Assembly: GCA_964588165.1 (NCBI GenBank)
Contig: CAZPMS010000005.1
Coordinates: 69,411 to 112,020 of the forward strand
DNA length: 42,610 bases
Origin: an uncultured Gammaproteobacteria bacterium
Lineage (GTDB): Bacteria > Patescibacteriota > Patescibacteriia > UBA1558 > UBA10009
Reading direction: 5' to 3'
Within the stretch, counting starts at the first letter, position 1. Each line of letters begins with the position of its first letter. The position numbers were made by a program, and so were the translations under genes. Below are positions 14,267-41,778 of this stretch, piece by piece. Under the pieces are notes generated by a model that was not told the DNA's origin, made no database searches, and saw nothing but the letters and a program-made list of their open reading frames with translations.

Positions 14267-14375
14267 TTGATTTTTAGGATTTTTACTCAAAAAAAACATT
14301 TTAACATTTTACGACGCTATATTTTGTTTTATGTTAGGCAAAAATGGGCAAATTAGTCCAATTTTCAATAACTAA

Positions 14376-14391
14376 TGTTCCACGTGGAACA
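14376..14391. other. parS-like ParB-binding palindrome TGTTCCACGTGGAACA
   Basis: Perfect 16-bp palindrome made of two TGTTCCAC half-sites. 15/16 to the Bacillus-type parS TGTTCCACGTGAAACA. Intergenic, about 8 kb from dnaA. Confidence 0.7.
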
Positions 14392-14563
14392 TCGAGTTAT
14401 CACTCGTTTCGGCTTACACAATCGAACAAGTTCAATTGGTTCAGCCTTCACGCGCGTCCCCCTCTCCACTCCTCATTTTATTCGGAATGGTTTAAAATAA
14501 GGGCATTGATAAGCAATAATATCTGACAAATTATTGAGTTTCCATTCAAACGAGCGTAATTTA

Positions 14564-14638
14564 GCCCCGATAGTTCAATGGATAGAACGTTGGCCTCCTA
14601 AGCCGAAGATTCAGGTTCGATTCCTGATCGGGGTACCA
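14564..14638 (+). tRNA. tRNA-Arg (anticodon CCT), CCA encoded
   Basis: Manual cloverleaf. Acceptor GCCCCGA/TCGGGGT, D arm GTTC..GAAC, anticodon stem TTGGC/GCCGA with loop CTCCTAA, T arm TCAGG-TTCGATT-CCTGA. 75 nt. Confidence 0.85.
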
Positions 14639-14644
14639 AAATAA

Positions 14645-14692
14645 GCTAATATTAGTCCAAATATTGACAATCGCATTGAAATAGTGTATATT
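14645..14692 (+). promoter_or_regulatory. tRNA-Ala promoter with upstream GCTAATATTAG palindrome
   Basis: GCTAATATTAG at 14645-14655; TTGACA at 14664-14669; 17-nt spacer; TATATT at 14687-14692. The tRNA starts 12 nt later. Confidence 0.5.
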
Positions 14693-14704
14693 AAGCCCAC
14701 TTTA

Positions 14705-14781
14705 GGGCCTCTAGCTCAGCTGGTTAGAGCGCTTGCATGGCATGCAAGAGGTCAAGGGTTCGAATCCCTTGAGGTCCACCA
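14705..14781 (+). tRNA. tRNA-Ala (anticodon GGC), CCA encoded
   Basis: Manual cloverleaf. Acceptor GGGCCTC/GAGGTCC with the G3:U70 Ala identity pair. Anticodon stem CTTGC/GCAAG with loop ATGGCAT. T arm AAGGG-TTCGAAT-CCCTT. 77 nt. Confidence 0.9.
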
Positions 14782-14804
14782 TTAAAGTATAAGAAAAGCG
14801 ATTT

Positions 14805-15101
14805 ATGTATTTTGTTTATATACTTCAAAGCTTGAAAGATTCAGGCTATTATATCGGAGTTACATCAAATATTGAAAGAAGATTTCGTGAACATAATTTA
14901 GGCTTGGCTAAATCAACAAAATCCAGAAGACCTTTCAAAATGGCAAGAATCGAGCAATATTTTTATATAAAAGACGCTTATAGACGGGAAAAGTTTTTAA
15001 AATCAAAGAAAAGCAGTAAAATTATAAGTAAGATTGTTGCCAGTCCCGACGTCCCGACCAAAGGTCGGAAATCGGGATCCCGACATAGCTCTTTGAGCTA
15101 G
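14805..15101 (+). CDS. GIY-YIG nuclease family protein (UPF0213/YhbQ-like)
   Basis: 98 aa. MYFVYILQSLKDSGYYIGVTSNIERRFREHN carries the GIY-(10)-YIG and R..EH motifs. The last ~20 codons run through a GC-rich multi-hairpin. Paralog at 41110-41388. Confidence 0.8.
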   Translation: MYFVYILQSLKDSGYYIGVTSNIERRFREHNLGLAKSTKSRRPFKMARIEQYFYIKDAYRREKFLKSKKSSKIISKIVASPDVPTKGRKSGSRHSSLS

Positions 15102-15109
15102 CGTCGGGA

Positions 15110-15154
15110 CATGGCATGCAAGAGGTCAAGGGTTCGAATCCCTTGAGGTCACCA
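15110..15154 (+). pseudogene. Duplicated 3' part of tRNA-Ala(GGC), from anticodon loop to CCA
   Basis: CATGGCATGCAAGAGGTCAAGGGTTCGAATCCCTTGAGGTC-ACCA matches 14736-14781 except for one missing C in the acceptor strand. There is no matching 5' half, so it cannot fold as a tRNA. Confidence 0.85.
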
Positions 15155-15172
15155 CTAATTAAAACAAAATTT

Positions 15173-16087
15173 ATGGAAAAACTTATTATTATAGGCTCTG
15201 GTCCGGCTGGTTTAACAGCAGCAATTTATTCAGCTAGAGCTAATTTGAACCCCCTGGTTATTGAGGGCAATGTACCAGGCGGCCAACTTTTATGGACTAC
15301 AGAGGTAGAAAATTTTCCTGGCTTTGAAAAAGGCATAATGGGGCCAGAATTGATGCAGAATATGAAAAAACAGGCCGAAAGATTTGGAGCGAAATTTGCC
15401 GCAGATATGGTAAAAAGTACTGATTTTAGCCAAAAACCATATAAAATCATAGTTGGTGACGAAACTTATGAGTCAGAAGCAGTTATTGTGGCTACTGGAG
15501 CCAGAGCTAGAATGCTTGGGATTAGCAATGAAGATGAATTATTAGGCAAAGGAGTCCATACTTGCGCAACCTGTGACGGAGCTTTTTATAGGGGAAAGGA
15601 AGTTATTATAGTTGGCGGTGGTGATAGTGCCATGGAAGAGGCCAATTTTTTAACTAAATTCGCTAAAAAAGTATATGTTGTTCATAGAAAGGAAACTCTT
15701 AACGCTTCTGAAATAATGCAGAAAAAGGCTAAAAGTAACCAAAAAATTGAATTTATTTGGAATTCAGTGATAAAAGAGTATATTGGTAAAGATAAATTAG
15801 AGGCTGTTAAATTGGCTAATAGTAAGTCAAATAAAGAAAAAGAAATGAAGATTGACGGTGTTTTCTTGGCAATTGGCCATATTCCCAATACAGAGATATT
15901 TAAAGATCAGCTTGATTTAGGCAAATTTGGCTATATTGAGCCAAAAAATAATGTCTTTACAGAAATAGAAGGTATTTTTGTGGCCGGAGATGTTTCTGAC
16001 TGGAAATACCGCCAGGCAGTTACGGCAGCCGGTTTTGGTTGTATGGCTTCATTGGAGGCAGAGAAATACTTAGATTCATTGGAATAA
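15173..16087 (+). CDS. trxB: Thioredoxin-disulfide reductase
   Basis: The ORF-track start 15116 lies inside the tRNA remnant. ATG at 15173 gives MEKLIIIGSGPAGLTAAIYSAR (FAD GxGxxG). Redox-active CATCDG. NADPH site VIIVGGGDSAMEEA. Confidence 0.9.
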   Translation: MEKLIIIGSGPAGLTAAIYSARANLNPLVIEGNVPGGQLLWTTEVENFPGFEKGIMGPELMQNMKKQAERFGAKFAADMVKSTDFSQKPYKIIVGDETYESEAVIVATGARARMLGISNEDELLGKGVHTCATCDGAFYRGKEVIIVGGGDSAMEEANFLTKFAKKVYVVHRKETLNASEIMQKKAKSNQKIEFIWNSVIKEYIGKDKLEAVKLANSKSNKEKEMKIDGVFLAIGHIPNTEIFKDQLDLGKFGYIEPKNNVFTEIEGIFVAGDVSDWKYRQAVTAAGFGCMASLEAEKYLDSLE

Positions 16088-16147
16088 AAACCTTGCCCGA
16101 TTCGTAACGACGTGCAATTGCACGTCGCAACTAAGCAAGGTTTTTTT
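16086..16147 (+). terminator. Compound hairpin terminator after trxB
   Basis: AAAAACCTTGC (16086-16096) pairs with GCAAGGTTTTT (16135-16145). Inner palindrome CGACGTGCAATTGCACGTCG at 16109-16128. T-run follows. Confidence 0.7.
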
Positions 16148-16162
16148 GTTCCACGTAGAACA
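16147..16162. other. parS-like site TGTTCCACGTAGAACA
   Basis: 15/16 to the perfect palindrome at 14376-14391. Intergenic, abutting the trxB terminator. Confidence 0.6.
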
Positions 16163-16290
16163 TCTTTTAAAAAACTCTCATCCGACAGATGTTCGAATGA
16201 GGCTTTTGATTCGGAGTGAACACAGCCAAAGTTATACTTTCTTTTTAAAGCTTTTAAGAAATAACTTACTATTAATTTCATTCAGCGGAC

Positions 16291-16325
16291 GAAAAAGCCC
16301 CTCGTCAGTAGAGTCGACGAGGAGC
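16291..16325 (-). terminator. Intrinsic terminator of the 17097-16340 two-gene unit
   Basis: CCTCGTC (16300-16306) pairs with GACGAGG (16316-16322). The A-run at 16292-16296 is a T-run on the minus strand. Confidence 0.6.
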
Positions 16326-16339
16326 CATGAACGTAAAAA

Positions 16340-16642
16340 TCACACTCGCTTGATTTGTGCACATGCTCGACGTATGGTGGTTCTTGCAGAACATTTTTTT
16401 ACCAAGCAATTAATCCAGCACAGTGACCGTTCCTGCGTTGGCTCCTGAGCGCATTTTATTGCAAGGGCACCTGTTCTATTTATAATACTACGGGCGGTAT
16501 CCCAGTAACTACTATTTGCTTCATCAAATGTTTCAGCCTTGGGCATTGGACAGTCCGCAGGATGATCATCGATGGGATAGAATGTCACAACCCGCAAAAC
16601 GAAGCCCCAGTATCTTTTCCCTCTCGTTTTCCTTGATTCCAT
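16340..16642 (-). CDS. Hypothetical 100-aa protein, Cys-rich C-terminus, function unknown
   Basis: AAGGAGG lies 8 nt upstream of the ATG (minus-strand reading CAAGGAGGCATATCGCATG). GC-richer sequence. A terminator follows directly. Confidence 0.5.
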   Translation of the reverse strand: MESRKTRGKRYWGFVLRVVTFYPIDDHPADCPMPKAETFDEANSSYWDTARSIINRTGALAIKCAQEPTQERSLCWINCLVKKCSARTTIRRACAQIKRV

Positions 16643-16722
16643 GCGATATGCCTCCTTGTTTGTATTTTACCAAGTTTTACTTTGAGTAGGCTAAGAGTCG
16701 TGTGTGAGTGTTTGCTCTTGAA

Positions 16723-17233: not shown

Positions 17234-17974
17234 ATGTTGAAAAATATTGACAACAAAATTGAAACATTAAAAAAGCTGGGCATGGCAGAAAACGAGGCAG
17301 AAATTTACCTTGTTTTACTAAAAACAGGAGGTGCAACTGCCACTATTTTGGCAAAATCATTGGATTTACAGCGAACTTCTGTTTATCACACCTTAACAAA
17401 GATGACTCGGCAGAAATTTATACAAGTTTATTATGAAAAGAATAAAAAGTTTTTTAAGCCAATTAAGCCATATAATCTGGCAAATCTGTTCAAACGAAAT
17501 CTAGAAAGCTTTAATAATTTAATCCCAAACTTAGATATCGCACAAAAAAGGGCCAATCAACAGGCCGGGCTTAGATTTATTCAAACTATAGAAGAATTAA
17601 AGGAATTTTATTTGCAGATTTTAGAGGATTATAAAGGCCAGAGCTATAAAATTATTGGTGATGCTGCTTCATGGGAAAATCTGGATTCCAACTTTTTTAT
17701 TGATTTTAGGAAAAAAAGAGGCAAGGCTAATATAAAAACCAAACTGCTTTTAACCAATGAATCAAAATCAATTAATCCAAAAGACAAGTCATTGCAAAGA
17801 ATAGTCAAGTTTTTGCCGGAAAAATATAGCTTTAAAAGCACTATAGATATTTACGACGATAAAATTTTAATTGTTGGATCAGATATTTCGGCTGTTGGCG
17901 TGGTTATTGAAGTCCCAGCCATGGTTGACGTTTTTAAAGAGACATTCAATATTCTATGGGAGGTTTTTTCTTAA
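17234..17974 (+). CDS. TrmB-family winged-helix transcriptional regulator (second copy)
   Basis: 246 aa. LKKLGMAENEAEIYLVLLKTGGATATILAKSLDLQRTSVYHTLTKMTRQKFI matches the TrmB wHTH pattern. Same length and architecture as 6648-7385. Confidence 0.7.
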   Translation: MLKNIDNKIETLKKLGMAENEAEIYLVLLKTGGATATILAKSLDLQRTSVYHTLTKMTRQKFIQVYYEKNKKFFKPIKPYNLANLFKRNLESFNNLIPNLDIAQKRANQQAGLRFIQTIEELKEFYLQILEDYKGQSYKIIGDAASWENLDSNFFIDFRKKRGKANIKTKLLLTNESKSINPKDKSLQRIVKFLPEKYSFKSTIDIYDDKILIVGSDISAVGVVIEVPAMVDVFKETFNILWEVFS

Positions 17975-41051: not shown

Positions 41052-41109
41052 GGTATTTACAAATAAGTAAATTTTGGTTATAATCGCTAAAGATTAAAGA
41101 AAAGTGATT

Positions 41110-41388
41110 ATGTATTATGTATATATTTTATTAAGTTATGAGGATTTTGGTATTTATACAGGCTGTACTAGTAATTTAAATAGAAGGCTGAAACAGCATA
41201 AATTAGGGCTTGTAGAATCAACTAAAAATAGATTACCCTTTAAATTAATATATTTTGAGGGATATTTATTTAAAAATCAGGCTTTTAAAAGAGAAAAATA
41301 TTTAAAAACTGGTTGGGGTAGATATTATATTAGTAAAGTTATTGGAGGTACAAAGAGTCATCTAGATAAAGATGGCCCGCTCGCCTAA
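41110..41388 (+). CDS. GIY-YIG nuclease family protein (UPF0213/YhbQ-like), paralog of 14805-15101
   Basis: The ORF-track start 41104 is GTG. ATG at 41110 gives MYYVYILLSYEDFGIYTGCTSNLNRRLKQHKLG. The 3' end runs into a hairpin that overlaps the start of tRNA-Gly. Confidence 0.8.
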   Translation: MYYVYILLSYEDFGIYTGCTSNLNRRLKQHKLGLVESTKNRLPFKLIYFEGYLFKNQAFKREKYLKTGWGRYYISKVIGGTKSHLDKDGPLA

Positions 41389-41415
41389 ATTTTCGCAGAG
41401 CGAAAGTTTTGGCGA

Positions 41416-41492
41416 GCGAGTGTAGTTCAGTTGGCTAGAACGTTTCCTTGCCAAGGAAAAGGTCGCCGGTTCGAATCCGGTCACTCGCTCCA
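41416..41492 (+). tRNA. tRNA-Gly (anticodon GCC), CCA encoded
   Basis: Manual cloverleaf. Acceptor GCGAGTG/CACTCGC, D arm GTTC..GAAC, anticodon stem TTTCC/GGAAA with loop TTGCCAA, T arm GCCGG-TTCGAAT-CCGGT, discriminator U. 77 nt. Confidence 0.9.
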
Positions 41493-41495
41493 TCG

Positions 41496-41627
41496 GGTTA
41501 TTATTCACTTCAGGTTTCGCATCCGAATAAATTCGAATGCTTTACCTTTCGTGAATATCCCCCTCTTCAGCCCGCCTATAGGTGGGCTGACAAAATTTAC
41601 CTTTGGTAAATTTTGAGAGGAATAACC
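41496..41627 (+). ncRNA. Candidate structured RNA or processed spacer between tRNA-Gly and tRNA-Leu (unassigned family)
   Basis: Nested helices read by eye. GGTTATT (41496-41502) with AATAACC (41621-41627). A long interrupted hairpin spans 41504-41555. CAGCCCGCC-TATA-GGTGGGCTG at 41568-41589. AAATTTACC-TTT-GGTAAATTT at 41593-41613. Confidence 0.3.
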
Positions 41628-41691
41628 GCGTGGAAGCTGAAATTATTGGCTCTTAAGCCAAAAATGAAAGCTGGAGCACGGTTATGACGAG

Positions 41692-41778
41692 CCGTGGTGG
41701 CGGAATTGGTAGACGCGCTGGACTTAAAATCCAGTGGGAGCAATCCCGTGAGAGTTCGAGTCTCTCCCGCGGCACCAG
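41692..41778 (+). tRNA. tRNA-Leu (anticodon TAA), long variable arm, CCA encoded
   Basis: Acceptor GCCGTGG/CCGCGGC. Anticodon stem CTGGA/TCCAG with loop CTTAAAA. Variable arm GTGGGAGCAATCCCGT. T arm GAGAG-TTCGAGT-CTCTC. 87 nt. Confidence 0.9.

Follow-up and report, generated by a model that had tools for sequence, protein, structure and literature searches.

What is a nuclease gene doing between a complete tRNA-Ala gene and a second copy of that tRNA's 3′ part? This arrangement occurs in a window of 42,610 nucleotides (contig CAZPMS010000005.1, positions 69,411 to 112,020) from an uncultured bacterium that GTDB places in the Patescibacteriota. All coordinates below refer to this window and all features lie on its forward strand (+) unless stated otherwise. 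A sequence-only reading had taken the locus for the footprint of a tiny element, devoid of an integrase, in a tRNA gene. Here we describe the anatomy of the locus, an empty site in relatives, the recurrence of the layout across many phyla and an identical cassette that has spread recently. On balance, we think that this is probably a promoter-less selfish cassette that resides in tRNA genes without disrupting the tRNA and moves by recombination triggered by its nuclease.

Anatomy of the tRNA-Ala locus

The intact tRNA-Ala(GGC) lies at 14705..14781 (ARAGORN; Rfam tRNA, 67 bits, E 3.5e-14) and, as read from the sequence, has the G3:U70 alanine identity pair. Its last 46 nt (nt 32-77; 14736-14781) recur as a displaced 3′ remnant at 15110..15154, running from nt 32 to CCA with one C deleted in the acceptor 3′ strand. 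A repeat search found the two copies to be exact over 41/41 nt (14736-14776 and 15110-15150, spacing 374), and by an arithmetic estimate ~1e-16 exact 41-mer repeats are expected by chance in 42.6 kb. The repeat begins at nt 32 of the gene, the base that closes the 5′ strand of the anticodon stem just ahead of the anticodon loop; owing to an additional base in the D loop, it corresponds to canonical position 31. No further piece of tRNA-Ala, its 5′ half included, was found anywhere in the window, nor were fragments of other tRNAs. The sequence-only reading had described a complete tRNA followed by a 3′ copy with one missing C and no 5′ half; ARAGORN and Rfam agree on the former, whilst the repeat and window searches bear out the latter.

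The insert between the two copies (14782-15109, 328 bp) consists of a leader, a GIY-YIG ORF and a hairpin dimer. The leader is 23 nt long (14782..14804, TTAAAGTATAAGAAAAGCGATTT) and resembles that of a second GIY-YIG gene in the window (ATTAAAGAAAAGTGATT; alignment A4). The ORF (14805..15101) encodes 98 aa and matches Pfam PF01541 with 59 bits against a cut-off of 22.6 (E 5.7e-16), as had been proposed for an insert of this length. The proposal that the ORF is its sole content did not hold, as the final 66 nt (15044-15109) form two tandem GC-rich hairpins. The conserved GIY-YIG core of 80 aa ends at ~15043 and codons 80-98 are read-through of hairpin DNA. An alignment of 22 sequences shows no variation at the catalytic residues Y5, Y16, R26 and E62 or at G18, and at least 90% conservation of the catalytic H30; C-terminal tails occur only where hairpin DNA is translated; in three relatives (L013-L015) the ORF stops at the first hairpin. 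A functional role of the tail SPDVPTKGRKSGSRHSSLS as a domain was therefore rejected, since close relatives end before the hairpin.

The protein is a predicted single-domain nuclease. Pfam returned overlapping GIY-YIG-like hits (PF01541, T5orf172, MUG113) and no separate DNA-binding domain. Classical GIY-YIG homing endonucleases carry a separate DNA-binding region. In contrast to those of the I-TevI/Seg type, only the catalytic domain is present here, and on profile scores the putative nuclease belongs to the single-domain Ssn/UPF0213/SLX1-like branch rather than to the I-TevI type with its DNA-binding domain. The family profile scored an Ssn homologue flanked by SRM repeats at 60.7 bits, the UPF0213 proteins 1zg2 and 1ywl at 58.5 and 51.8, and SLX1 at ~30, so that the cassette protein is as near to Ssn nucleases as to UPF0213. 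PHROGs and NCBIfam gave no useful family name; the single NCBIfam match, to TIGR01453 (group I intron endonuclease), reached 19 bits where the cut-off is 56. At E <= 0.001, 5,993 database proteins match.

Both hairpins have a GC-rich stem base, TCCCGA/TCGGGA. Hairpin 1 (15044..15077) reads TCCCGA-CG-(TCCCGACC AAA GGTCGGA)-AA-TCGGGA and hairpin 2 (15078..15109) TCCCGA-CA-(TAGCTC TTT GAGCTA)-GCG-TCGGGA, with folding, covariation and comparison of seven loci as evidence for each. The RNA fold of 15030-15160 has z = -6.7, and the consensus structure of five copies of the dimer shows compensatory changes. The unit common to the seven loci is the gene followed by two TCCCGA-N-TCGGGA modules; similarity ends at the last TCGGGA, beyond which each locus runs into its own tRNA fragment. 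The last base of hairpin 2 (15109) thus marks the right end of the conserved cassette. Across the homologous loci described below, CCCGA..TCGGG hairpins occur in ~24/81, and such hairpins stand at fragment junctions in MAGs of Patescibacteria, Bacteroidota, Zixibacteria and Bdellovibrionales/Micavibrio. In many remnants a GC-rich hairpin stands in for a whole tRNA arm.

Within the window there are no further copies of the hairpin core. The TCCCGA/TCGGGA pairs are confined to the 3′ end of the insert, with no partner upstream of the gene, and the terminal inverted repeats at both ends that would mark an IS or MITE are absent. Three other views of this region were rejected. As a known RNA family it gave only a 14.6-bit match to 'skipping-rope' (Rfam, E 3.9); a four-way 'cloverleaf' whose outer stem extends into the remnant, seen in the first fold, gave way to two tandem hairpins in the consensus fold of five copies; and pairing of the ORF end TTGTTGCCAG with the anticodon loop was taken as coincidence, not being conserved in relatives. 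Likewise, a group I intron or other known RNA was discarded for the locus, where the two tRNAs are all that Rfam reports with E up to 10. No Intron_gpI match appeared in 14300-15400 at that threshold and the upstream tRNA is complete.

An 18-nt spacer (15155..15172) separates the remnant from trxB (15173..16087; thioredoxin reductase, 304 aa; Pfam Pyr_redox_2, E 7e-50). The spacer aligns with the 25-nt spacer of relatives that lack the insert, and we take it to be the native tRNA-trxB spacer. Gene calls on the same DNA in public contigs and alignment with relatives place the true trxB start at ATG 15173. The longer frame of 323 aa begins at 15116, inside the remnant, and its N-terminal extension is indeed spurious, as had been suspected. 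Further downstream, 16270-16700 looks like a small protein gene on the minus strand with an AAGGAGG ribosome-binding site, as read from the sequence. It was dismissed as a candidate ncRNA, having no Rfam hit and a fold z of +0.8.

A predicted sigma-70-type promoter precedes tRNA-Ala (14664..14692; TTGACA, 17 nt, TATATT), matching the consensus at 11/12 positions. A scan found no strong promoter-like site inside the cassette, and therefore the tRNA promoter most likely transcribes it by read-through. Between this promoter and trxB no terminator-like site occurs, and the promoter probably drives both the GIY-YIG gene and trxB. Such read-through would also explain why the homologous genes are always on the strand of their tRNA.

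The second GIY-YIG gene of the window (41110..41388; motif scan, ORF list, alignment A1) encodes 92 aa and shares 42% identity with the first. It sits between its own promoter-like site (41056..41084; TTTACA, 17 nt, TATAAT, again 11/12 consensus positions) and an intact tRNA-Gly(GCC) (41416..41492; ARAGORN; Rfam, 71 bits). A hairpin seen in sequence and fold, CGCTCGCC...GGCGAGCG enclosing TTTCGC-AGA-GCGAAA (41378..41418), overlaps the stop codon of this gene and the first 3 nt of its tRNA partner. No partial copy of tRNA-Gly was detected in the window.

Empty sites, spread and recurrence at other tRNA genes

The site without the insert is preserved in relatives. In two loci (L090, L119), whose TrxB is 72% identical, tRNA-Ala is followed by 25 nt and the trxB ATG, in the gene order of the window, tRNA-Arg(CCT)/tRNA-Ala(GGC)/trxB. 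The remnant occupies the position where the tRNA 3′ end sits in these relatives. Given a TrxB identity of only 72%, the two loci show the ancestral state and not a polymorphism within a population. In none of the 80 trxB loci compared was a GIY-YIG gene found.

The cassette itself has been found behind a different flank. Two contigs from other samples (L005, L006), representing another organism, match the window at 100% identity for 467 nt: the tract starts at tRNA nt 1, takes in the gene and the hairpins and runs into the remnant, where both contigs end. Upstream of this tract, their promoter and spacer (~50-70 nt) differ from those of the window by 17 mismatches and 3 gaps, and the tRNA ahead of that spacer has a different 3′ end. 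An identical cassette behind a divergent flank points to recent lateral spread, on contigs that stop within the remnant. No integrase domain lies within 3 kb, the neighbours being DAGK_cat, bactofilin, TrxB and TrmB, and the description of a tiny, integrase-less element with one GIY-YIG ORF stands. A search of IMG/VR viral contigs turned up no relatives, and a plasmid search gave only 4 weak matches, one of which yielded the SRM-flanked Ssn reference.

We then considered 89 homologous GIY-YIG genes, whose loci were picked by protein similarity only and located with alignment A2, the broad alignment A1 being too diverse. Of these, 60 abut a tRNA gene on the same strand (34 with the tRNA upstream, 20 downstream and 6 on both sides); in no case is the nearest tRNA on the opposite strand. 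As a control, only 12/80 trxB loci have a tRNA within 2 kb. A partial copy of the adjacent tRNA lies on the far side of the gene in 44/60, an upstream tRNA being associated with 3′ pieces and a downstream tRNA mostly with 5′ pieces, whilst the other 16 show no detectable duplication. Both signs that had been named as worth seeking, empty sites and further GIY-YIG genes with a partial tRNA duplication beside them, are thus present, and together they support an insertion footprint in a tRNA gene.

The association spans most tRNA isotypes and a tmRNA gene (L071), and the layout recurs beside tRNA genes in many bacterial phyla. The protein's nearest neighbour has the same tRNA isotype in 33/61 cases against 4.2 expected, a value reached by 0/1000 shuffles; this tracking is partly confounded by vertical inheritance. 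One locus (L022) holds three tandem GIY-YIG genes, and two distant members (L043, L048) sit beside group I introns. In another (L008) the remnant is a tRNA-Val allele different from the intact copy. Comparison of Val-associated relatives with the Ala copy of the window shows the gene and hairpins in common and the tRNA part not. We found no description of this layout in the freely accessible literature.

Relation to known systems

The closest enzymatic parallel is the Ssn family (CDD cd10448), GIY-YIG nucleases of a single domain whose genes are accompanied by NTS/SRM hairpin repeats (Chenal et al. 2025, PMC11893778). These enzymes attach to the hairpins in single-stranded DNA and cleave next to them, and they also cleave with a hairpin assembled from two separate oligonucleotides; their role outside Neisseria is unknown according to the authors, who describe an IS-like 'repeat-gene-repeat' appearance and in whose paper 'tRNA' occurs 0 times (PMC11893778). 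The two systems share a GIY-YIG domain on its own (~80-95 aa) and a gene with flanking hairpin repeats that are 20-50 nt long and have TCCCG...CGGGA at the base of the stem. They differ in that the hairpins described here abut or replace parts of a tRNA copy, with an intact tRNA directly beside the gene. The core of NTS reads ATTCCCGCG..CGCGGGAAT (PMC11893778), and the SRM consensus HGTCWYN(0-2)YYVSBRHN(0-5)WNVSBRGN(0-2)RNCYNB had 0 matches in the window and 0 in 81 GIY-YIG loci (237 kb). As a control, the same pattern recovered the consensus of NTS as well as 4 copies surrounding a homologue from Azospirillum. The published SRM matches none of these hairpins, and therefore the Ssn analogy is a lead and not a test.

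An identical geometry is known from fungal mitochondria, where mORFs carry the 3′ end of a gene (Allomyces atp6; Glomus atp6, atp9, cox2 and nad3): the 5′ part of the host gene is followed by an inserted 3′ part, an endonuclease ORF and the displaced native 3′ part (PMC3630166). Also alike are a GIY-YIG enzyme in atp9, an empty allele in relatives and co-transcription of the mORF with its host gene (PMC3630166). However, the host there is a mitochondrial protein gene and here a bacterial tRNA. The inserted part here equals the native part (41/41) with no foreign origin visible, a foreign allele being seen in L008. Moreover, the present unit has a minimal single-domain enzyme, hairpin modules and mirror forms with 5′ duplications.

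Integrase-borne islands and prophages in tRNA or tmRNA genes likewise leave a complete and a partial tRNA copy flanking the insert (PMC9897764). Breaks at the anticodon loop are among the typical sublocations, as is a tmRNA gene, represented here by L071 (PMC9897764; Williams 2002 therein). In contrast, islands measure 9-100 kb (PMC9897764) whereas the insert here measures 0.33 kb and has no integrase, partial copies of 5′ halves also occur, and hairpins cap the fragment.

Homing provides the paradigm for the step that we propose below. SegB of phage T4 is a free-standing GIY-YIG homing endonuclease in a tRNA gene cluster, reported to be required for preferred inheritance of the tRNA region (PMC2330249). 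It shares with our cassette a GIY-YIG nuclease gene among tRNA genes; it differs in being homologous to classical GIY-YIG homing endonucleases and in belonging to a phage and not a chromosome (PMC2330249), and we know of no tRNA duplication or hairpin module described for it. Like a classical homing endonuclease gene, the cassette has occupied and empty alleles (L090 and L119, which are distant relatives) and shows signs of lateral spread independent of its upstream flank (L005, L006). A last parallel is the REP/BIME palindromes with their RAYT enzymes (IS200/IS605-like), a small nuclease gene with multiplying GC-rich palindromes recognised as ssDNA hairpins, in which the enzyme is of the HUH and not the GIY-YIG superfamily. 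To our knowledge, REPs do not replace tRNA arms. The REP/RAYT comparison was also drawn by the Ssn authors (PMC11893778).

Proposed movement of the cassette and its implications

We suggest that a cassette of leader, nuclease gene and two hairpins inserted into a tRNA-Ala(GGC) gene that originally stood directly before trxB. Insertion would have produced two copies of tRNA nt 32-77, of which the promoter-side copy completes the functional tRNA and the native 3′ segment, headed by the hairpins, would remain beside trxB as a dead remnant. From the Ssn analogy we infer nuclease activity, its substrate and a copying step: the protein may recognise its own hairpins, and perhaps arms of tRNA genes, in ssDNA and cut beside them, the break being repaired by copying of the cassette. 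The tRNA sequence flanking the cassette would act as a portable homology arm, and any genome with the same tRNA could thus be invaded without loss of the tRNA. Two observations weigh against this scheme. No immunity polymorphism is visible between intact tRNA and remnant, and because they are identical over 41 nt a nuclease recognising that part would cut the occupied allele too. Furthermore, Val and Ala copies lack a common tRNA part, so that at least the change of tRNA type cannot be put down to simple homologous homing and the duplication must then arise at insertion. An attL/attR analogy drawn from the sequence holds for the geometry only, and the data accommodate either a carried-in or a duplicated origin of the 3′ segment.

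The latter origin is central to a rival that we regard as unlikely, although the strongest of the alternatives, namely a transposition-like insertion with a long target-site duplication. Here staggered cuts would fall at the tRNA terminus and, on the other strand, at an internal arm; the cassette would be joined, the gap filled and the stretch between the cuts duplicated, with no need for a homologous donor allele. This would suit the duplications, one end of which is usually the tRNA terminus whilst the other varies (nt 8, 11, 19 or 32, or the T arm; in the six loci with tRNAs on both sides the duplicate is a whole tRNA). It would also suit the Val and Ala copies, which have a common cassette and different tRNA parts, and the duplicates within a locus, which are usually 100% identical (0 mismatches/171 nt of long 3′ pieces). 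However, the model needs strand transfer, and GIY-YIG enzymes are hydrolytic nucleases for which we know of no such activity. Nor is there a fixed pair of ends, as the hairpin is 3′ of the gene in loci with an upstream tRNA and 5′ in those with a downstream tRNA. The remnant of L008, being another tRNA-Val allele, better fits a carried-in segment than a fresh duplication, and a 100% identical tract that starts exactly at tRNA nt 1 is left unexplained. A different objection is that nothing here is mobile: the gene may be a resident and possibly domesticated host gene, co-transcribed with tRNAs by chance, with the copies and hairpins as scars of hairpin-directed cutting at heavily transcribed and often single-stranded tRNA genes. 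Such a role has a precedent in Neisseria Ssn, for which domestication and a modulating effect on transformation have been proposed (PMC11893778). The architecture of gene, hairpin and remnant is kept across GIY-YIG proteins only 64-70% identical to that of the window, and several hairpin substitutions pile up in remnants without extra nuclease genes. We nevertheless hold this to be improbable in view of the empty site in relatives, the identical cassette behind a divergent flank, two diverged copies that lie beside different tRNA genes within 27 kb of each other in a single genome, and the involvement of most tRNA isotypes and tmRNA, with L022 carrying three tandem GIY-YIG genes.

That the locus is a decayed integrase-borne island or prophage in tRNA-Ala, of which attL, attR and one cargo gene are left, seems very improbable. 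Integrase-mediated integration does leave a complete and a partial tRNA, the latter often comprising everything 3′ of the anticodon loop along with the loop itself (PMC9897764). Against this, there is no integrase within 3 kb, and >40 unrelated loci have the same content of ~250-330 bp between tRNA and fragment, namely a single GIY-YIG gene that may or may not be accompanied by hairpins. Moreover, versions with 5′ fragments exist, and the hairpins abut the fragment exactly. Lastly, a repeat-induced misjoin could in principle have made the second tRNA piece, and the short contigs of L005 and L006 do end inside the remnant, as where a repeat breaks the assembly graph. This artefact, which the sequence-only reading had itself raised as fatal to its claim, is effectively refuted. 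Four contigs of 2.2 to 65.6 kb, one from each of four samples (JGI 3300009375, 3300009008, 3300009128 and ENA ERZ23498905), are 100% identical over 14601-15260 and cover both junctions, and the 1-nt deletion in the copy is not expected from a misjoin.

A bolder version of the selfish cassette, which we offer as a long shot, is that hairpin-capped remnants are the targeting half of a nucleic-acid-guided GIY-YIG nuclease system that can be retargeted to any tRNA. The nuclease would grip the TCCCGA/TCGGGA hairpin as a handle, and the adjoining tRNA segment would pair with, or mimic, the single-stranded tRNA gene of a naive genome, so that the fragment beside the hairpin sets which tRNA is targeted. 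This would explain how one protein lineage came to lie on most tRNA isotypes and a tmRNA gene, and why remnants are near-identical to the live tRNA whilst whole arms are swapped for the cognate hairpin.

For Ssn-like enzymes, these loci suggest a role for a large sister clade, as the engine of minimal selfish cassettes in tRNA genes. If confirmed, this would be a new form of tRNA-gene parasitism that neither uses an integrase nor inactivates the gene, and a bacterial counterpart of the mitochondrial elements made of a mobile ORF and a carried gene end. Annotation of such genomes should expect tRNA-like pseudogenes with hairpin-substituted arms, contig breaks at the repeats and false N- or C-terminal extensions of neighbouring ORFs, as with trxB and the nuclease tail here. 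The many pairs of hairpin and enzyme with natural tRNA-adjacent targets would also form a ready panel for ssDNA work. Moreover, several tRNA loci of candidate phyla look like hot spots that have been hit repeatedly, which bears on how small genomes, probably with few spare tRNA copies, tolerate such hits.

A GIY-YIG cassette between intact tRNA-Ala and a copy of its 3′ part

The tRNA-Ala(GGC) gene at 14705-14781 (+ strand) is intact according to both ARAGORN and Rfam, and the G3:U70 alanine identity pair can be read from it. A repeat search of the window returned an exact 41-nt direct repeat (14736-14776 and 15110-15150) that starts at gene nt 32, the final base of the anticodon stem 5′ strand; the right copy continues to CCA at 15154, its acceptor strand being short of one C. 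Neither the 5′ half nor any further piece of tRNA-Ala occurs in the window. The sequence-only reading, which had described a complete tRNA followed by a 3′ part-copy lacking one C and without a 5′ half, is thus upheld. Its account of the 328-bp insert holds in part: the GIY-YIG ORF of 98 codons is present (14805-15101; Pfam GIY-YIG, E 5.7e-16), but it is not the sole content, as 15044-15109 consists of hairpins. It was right that trxB had gained a false N-terminal extension out of the displaced tRNA piece (the remnant, 15110-15154): the true start is 15173 and the longer ORF beginning within the remnant is spurious. A promoter-like site, TTGACA-17-TATATT (14664-14692; 11/12 consensus positions), lies 12 nt 5′ of tRNA-Ala, and no terminator-like site was found from there to trxB.

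Empty sites in related genomes, a check put forward in that reading, were sought with TrxB as query against metagenome contigs. All 80 trxB loci lack a GIY-YIG gene. In two of these, L090 and L119 (TrxB 72% identical; L119 is a contig of 963 kb), the order is tRNA-Arg(CCT), tRNA-Ala(GGC), trxB, and the trxB ATG comes 25 nt after tRNA-Ala. In an alignment with both loci, the window remnant corresponds to their tRNA 3′ end and the 18-nt spacer behind it to their spacer, so the remnant marks where that end lay ancestrally. Among the trxB relatives, the closest (L091, 76%) also lacks the nuclease gene between tRNA-Ala(GGC) and trxB; its spacer holds 165 nt of GC-rich hairpins (1836-2000), among them CATCCCGCCTATGGCGGGATTCG, which resembles the core of the Neisseria hairpin repeat NTS. 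These hairpins may be the relic of a lost cassette or an insertion of hairpins alone. A same-strand tRNA (Ala, Val or Arg) lies ~25-170 nt 5′ of trxB in L090, L091, L093, L095, L103, L105 and L119, suggesting that trxB is co-transcribed with a tRNA in several lineages, independently of the cassette.

The same cassette was also found behind a diverged flank. L005 and L006, short contigs assembled from other samples, encode a GIY-YIG protein identical to that of the window and match it at 100% over 467 nt, starting at tRNA nt 1 and running across gene and hairpins into the remnant, where both contigs stop. Upstream of the tRNA they are clearly homologous, yet carry 17 mismatches and 3 gaps in ~50-70 nt, and the 3′ end of the preceding tRNA differs. 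The last difference is the base directly 5′ of the tRNA; the left boundary of the identical tract lies at or inside the tRNA. Zero synonymous change in the gene beside so diverged a spacer indicates that the cassette was transferred or converted recently between distinct genomes.

A 16-nt palindrome, TGTTCCACGTGGAACA, occurs twice (14376-14391 and, with one mismatch, 16147-16162; 0 expected), its copies flanking the tRNA-Arg/tRNA-Ala/GIY-YIG/trxB block and each yielding a spurious ORF that begins MFHVEH. Because a TrmB-family regulator gene lies at 17234-17974, the palindrome could be a candidate operator. Separately, 16340-16642 (minus strand) is a GC-richer stretch with overlapping 100-aa ORFs on both strands, of which the minus-strand ORF has a readable AAGGAGG ribosome-binding site and terminator-like hairpin. 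This stretch has no Pfam annotation in public contigs and no Rfam match, and its RNA folding is not unusual (z = +0.8).

Hairpins at the cassette end and inside tRNA remnants

The final 66 nt of the insert (15044-15109) have a G+C of 56%, against 36% for the genome and likewise for the window, and fold strongly (z = -6.7). Across five copies from three loci, two tandem hairpins each keep the stem base TCCCGA...TCGGGA, while the tips vary with pairing held by double changes (9 of the 26 pairs show compensatory changes). This covariation is not proof of selection, as mechanisms that make both arms together can produce palindromes. Hairpin DNA simply read in frame accounts for the final 19 codons of the ORF; the core of the protein measures ~80 aa, and in close relatives the stop codon comes just 5′ of the first hairpin. 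The gene plus (TCCCGA-N-TCGGGA)x2 is common to seven loci, namely one at tRNA-Ala (that of the window), five at tRNA-Val, and L011, whose flanks are degenerate tRNA-like copies. In these seven, similarity stops exactly at the final TCGGGA, after which comes a locus-specific tRNA fragment from nt 11, 19 or 32.

Short CCCGAY-N-RTCGGG hairpins stand at fragment junctions in distant phyla; a Zixibacteria MAG, for example, has three copies of CCCGATAGCAATCGGG, and a Chitinophagaceae MAG has CCCGATTTTTATCGGG. Moreover, in many remnants a hairpin takes the place of a tRNA arm or of one arm strand: the anticodon arm in L078, the D and T arms in L016 (acceptor and anticodon arms retained), the anticodon stem 5′ strand in L020, L024, L044 and L052, and an arm that differs from copy to copy in L046. 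The replacing segments have a G+C of 50-82% in loci of 31-45%. Long 3′ pieces show 0 mismatches to the live tRNA in 171 nt, while the 5′ pieces of those same remnants have one mismatch apiece (3 in 65 nt), which argues that the remnants are not simply decaying. In L007 (Komeilibacteria GCA_026396635.1, 2720-2960) an intact tRNA-Val(GAC) allele sits within the broken body of a second tRNA-Val(GAC) allele, the outer one bearing hairpin insertions in its D and T loops; in L008 (2880-2960) it is the outer tRNA-Val allele that is intact, with a fragment of the inner one 3′ of the nuclease gene. This looks like one tRNA gene successively replaced by another.

Recurrence beside tRNA genes and comparison with Ssn nucleases

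The layout is widespread and strand-locked to the tRNA. GIY-YIG loci were picked by protein similarity alone, one genome per species, from MAGs and one isolate genome. Their taxon labels, some of which may be unreliable for MAGs, span many Patescibacteria classes, Bacteroidota, Ignavibacteriales/Melioribacter, Omnitrophota, Zixibacteria, KSB1, Gemmatimonadota, Bdellovibrionales/Micavibrio, Planctomycetales, Gammaproteobacteria and a Nanobdellati archaeon. A same-strand tRNA adjoins 60/89 genes (34 upstream, 20 downstream, 6 on both sides), often at 1-30 nt, and at none of the loci is the nearest tRNA on the opposite strand; as a control, just 12/80 trxB loci have a tRNA within 2 kb. Beyond the nuclease gene, 44 of the 60 have a partial copy of the adjoining tRNA, which supports the sequence-only reading, one of whose checks was to look for other GIY-YIG genes flanked in this way. 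Where the tRNA is upstream of the gene, these fragments come from its 3′ part; where it is downstream, mostly from its 5′ part. Each of the six two-sided loci has one complete tRNA per side, the same tRNA-Pro in L032, L034 and L063 and different tRNAs in L025, L052 and L059. Nearest-neighbour proteins share a tRNA isotype in 33/61 cases (4.2 expected), a figure that includes vertical inheritance.

Among loci without an ARAGORN tRNA, one has degenerate tRNAs on its flanks, L071 (1000-1758) has its nuclease gene 150 nt 3′ of a tmRNA gene (125 bits), and in L043 (1501-2046) and L048 (1111-1761) it is next to an Rfam group I intron (74 and 96 bits, respectively); these introns might interrupt tRNA genes invisible to ARAGORN. 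Arrays of hairpin-substituted tRNA plus spacer surround one intact tRNA in L020 (1259-1900) and L078 (1286-1951), and two to three tandem nuclease genes with tRNA remnants between them occur in L014 (1000-2250) and L022 (1389-2450), suggesting that the same tRNA was hit repeatedly.

Between an 11/12 promoter match and tRNA-Gly(GCC), the window itself carries another GIY-YIG gene (41110-41388), whose 92-aa product shares 42% identity with that of the first; promoter match, gene and tRNA together occupy 41056-41492. The leader of this gene resembles that of the first, and one hairpin covers both its stop codon and the tRNA-Gly 5′ end. Because no tRNA-Gly fragment is detectable in the window, the insertion may be of greater age or have been made in a different way. 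The 198-nt spacer from tRNA-Gly to tRNA-Leu(TAA) (41493-41690) is full of long hairpins (z = -7.3 for 41360-41700) that have no Rfam match at gathering threshold; one stem-loop, GGCTCTTAAGCC, resembles the tRNA-Lys(CTT) anticodon arm.

The family profile matches the UPF0213 solved structures 1zg2 (E 5.8e-15) and 1ywl, and SLX1 more weakly. The catalytic residues are conserved in the alignment, and no second domain was found in the window protein. The profile also matches an Azospirillum plasmid protein (60.7 bits) whose gene has the published Ssn-related motif around it in four perfect copies, making it a bona fide Ssn by the criterion of Chenal et al. 2025 (PMC11893778). In A. lipoferum 4B plasmid AZO_p3 (L170 1379-1887; NC_016623.1 255396-255904) a 97-aa GIY-YIG gene between sufB and sufC has on each side two near-perfect Ssn motifs (CGTCATCCCCGCGAAGGCGGGGATCCAG) inverted relative to each other, a textbook 'repeat-gene-repeat' unit within an operon. 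According to Chenal et al., Ssn proteins bind their own hairpin repeat solely in single-stranded DNA and cut beside it, and repeats of this kind flank most ssn genes; their text states the role outside Neisseria to be unknown and nowhere mentions tRNA. Since the published motif pattern has zero matches among the hairpins of our loci, Ssn-like working of this family is, by analogy, a lead only.

A possible route of spread

A cassette of gene and hairpins thus has the same part of a tRNA gene on either side of it, at a site that is empty in relatives. We propose that it would be expressed by read-through from the tRNA promoter; an ATG only 1-8 nt past the tRNA in several family members suggests that leaderless mRNAs may arise there from tRNA 3′ processing. 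The enzyme would cut single-stranded DNA next to hairpins or tRNA arms, and break repair would copy the cassette. It would be flanked by two homology arms portable between genomes, one being the tRNA 5′ part and the other the displaced 3′ part, and the tRNA would stay whole throughout, much as the host gene stays whole when mobile endonuclease ORFs (mORFs) of fungal mitochondria bring along its 3′ end (PMC3630166).

Pure homing is strained by two features of the sequences: the Val- and Ala-associated copies have no tRNA part in common, and the two tRNA-Ala copies are identical, so that no immunity polymorphism is visible. On these grounds, entry into new targets would itself have made the duplication, for example by staggered cuts at the tRNA terminus and an internal arm, and this is the main rival. 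Less likely is a resident nuclease gene with the tRNA copies as scars, and so is a decayed integrase island; the genes around the locus encode DAGK_cat, bactofilin, TrxB and TrmB, and within 3 kb there is no integrase. An assembly artefact is ruled out for the tRNA-Ala duplication because contigs from four different samples cross both junctions at 100% identity.

We found no description of a minimal Ssn-like nuclease with cognate hairpins nested in a tRNA duplication in the full-text literature, a search mostly outside subscription journals, and prior description is possible. The parts are known: GIY-YIG homing genes near tRNAs, as with T4 SegB (PMC2330249), the mORF geometry with a transported gene end (PMC3630166), partial tRNA copies left by integration (PMC9897764) and Ssn enzymes with hairpin repeats (PMC11893778). 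What may be new is their combination: a cassette in a tRNA duplication that recurs in many phyla and in which hairpins take the place of tRNA arms.
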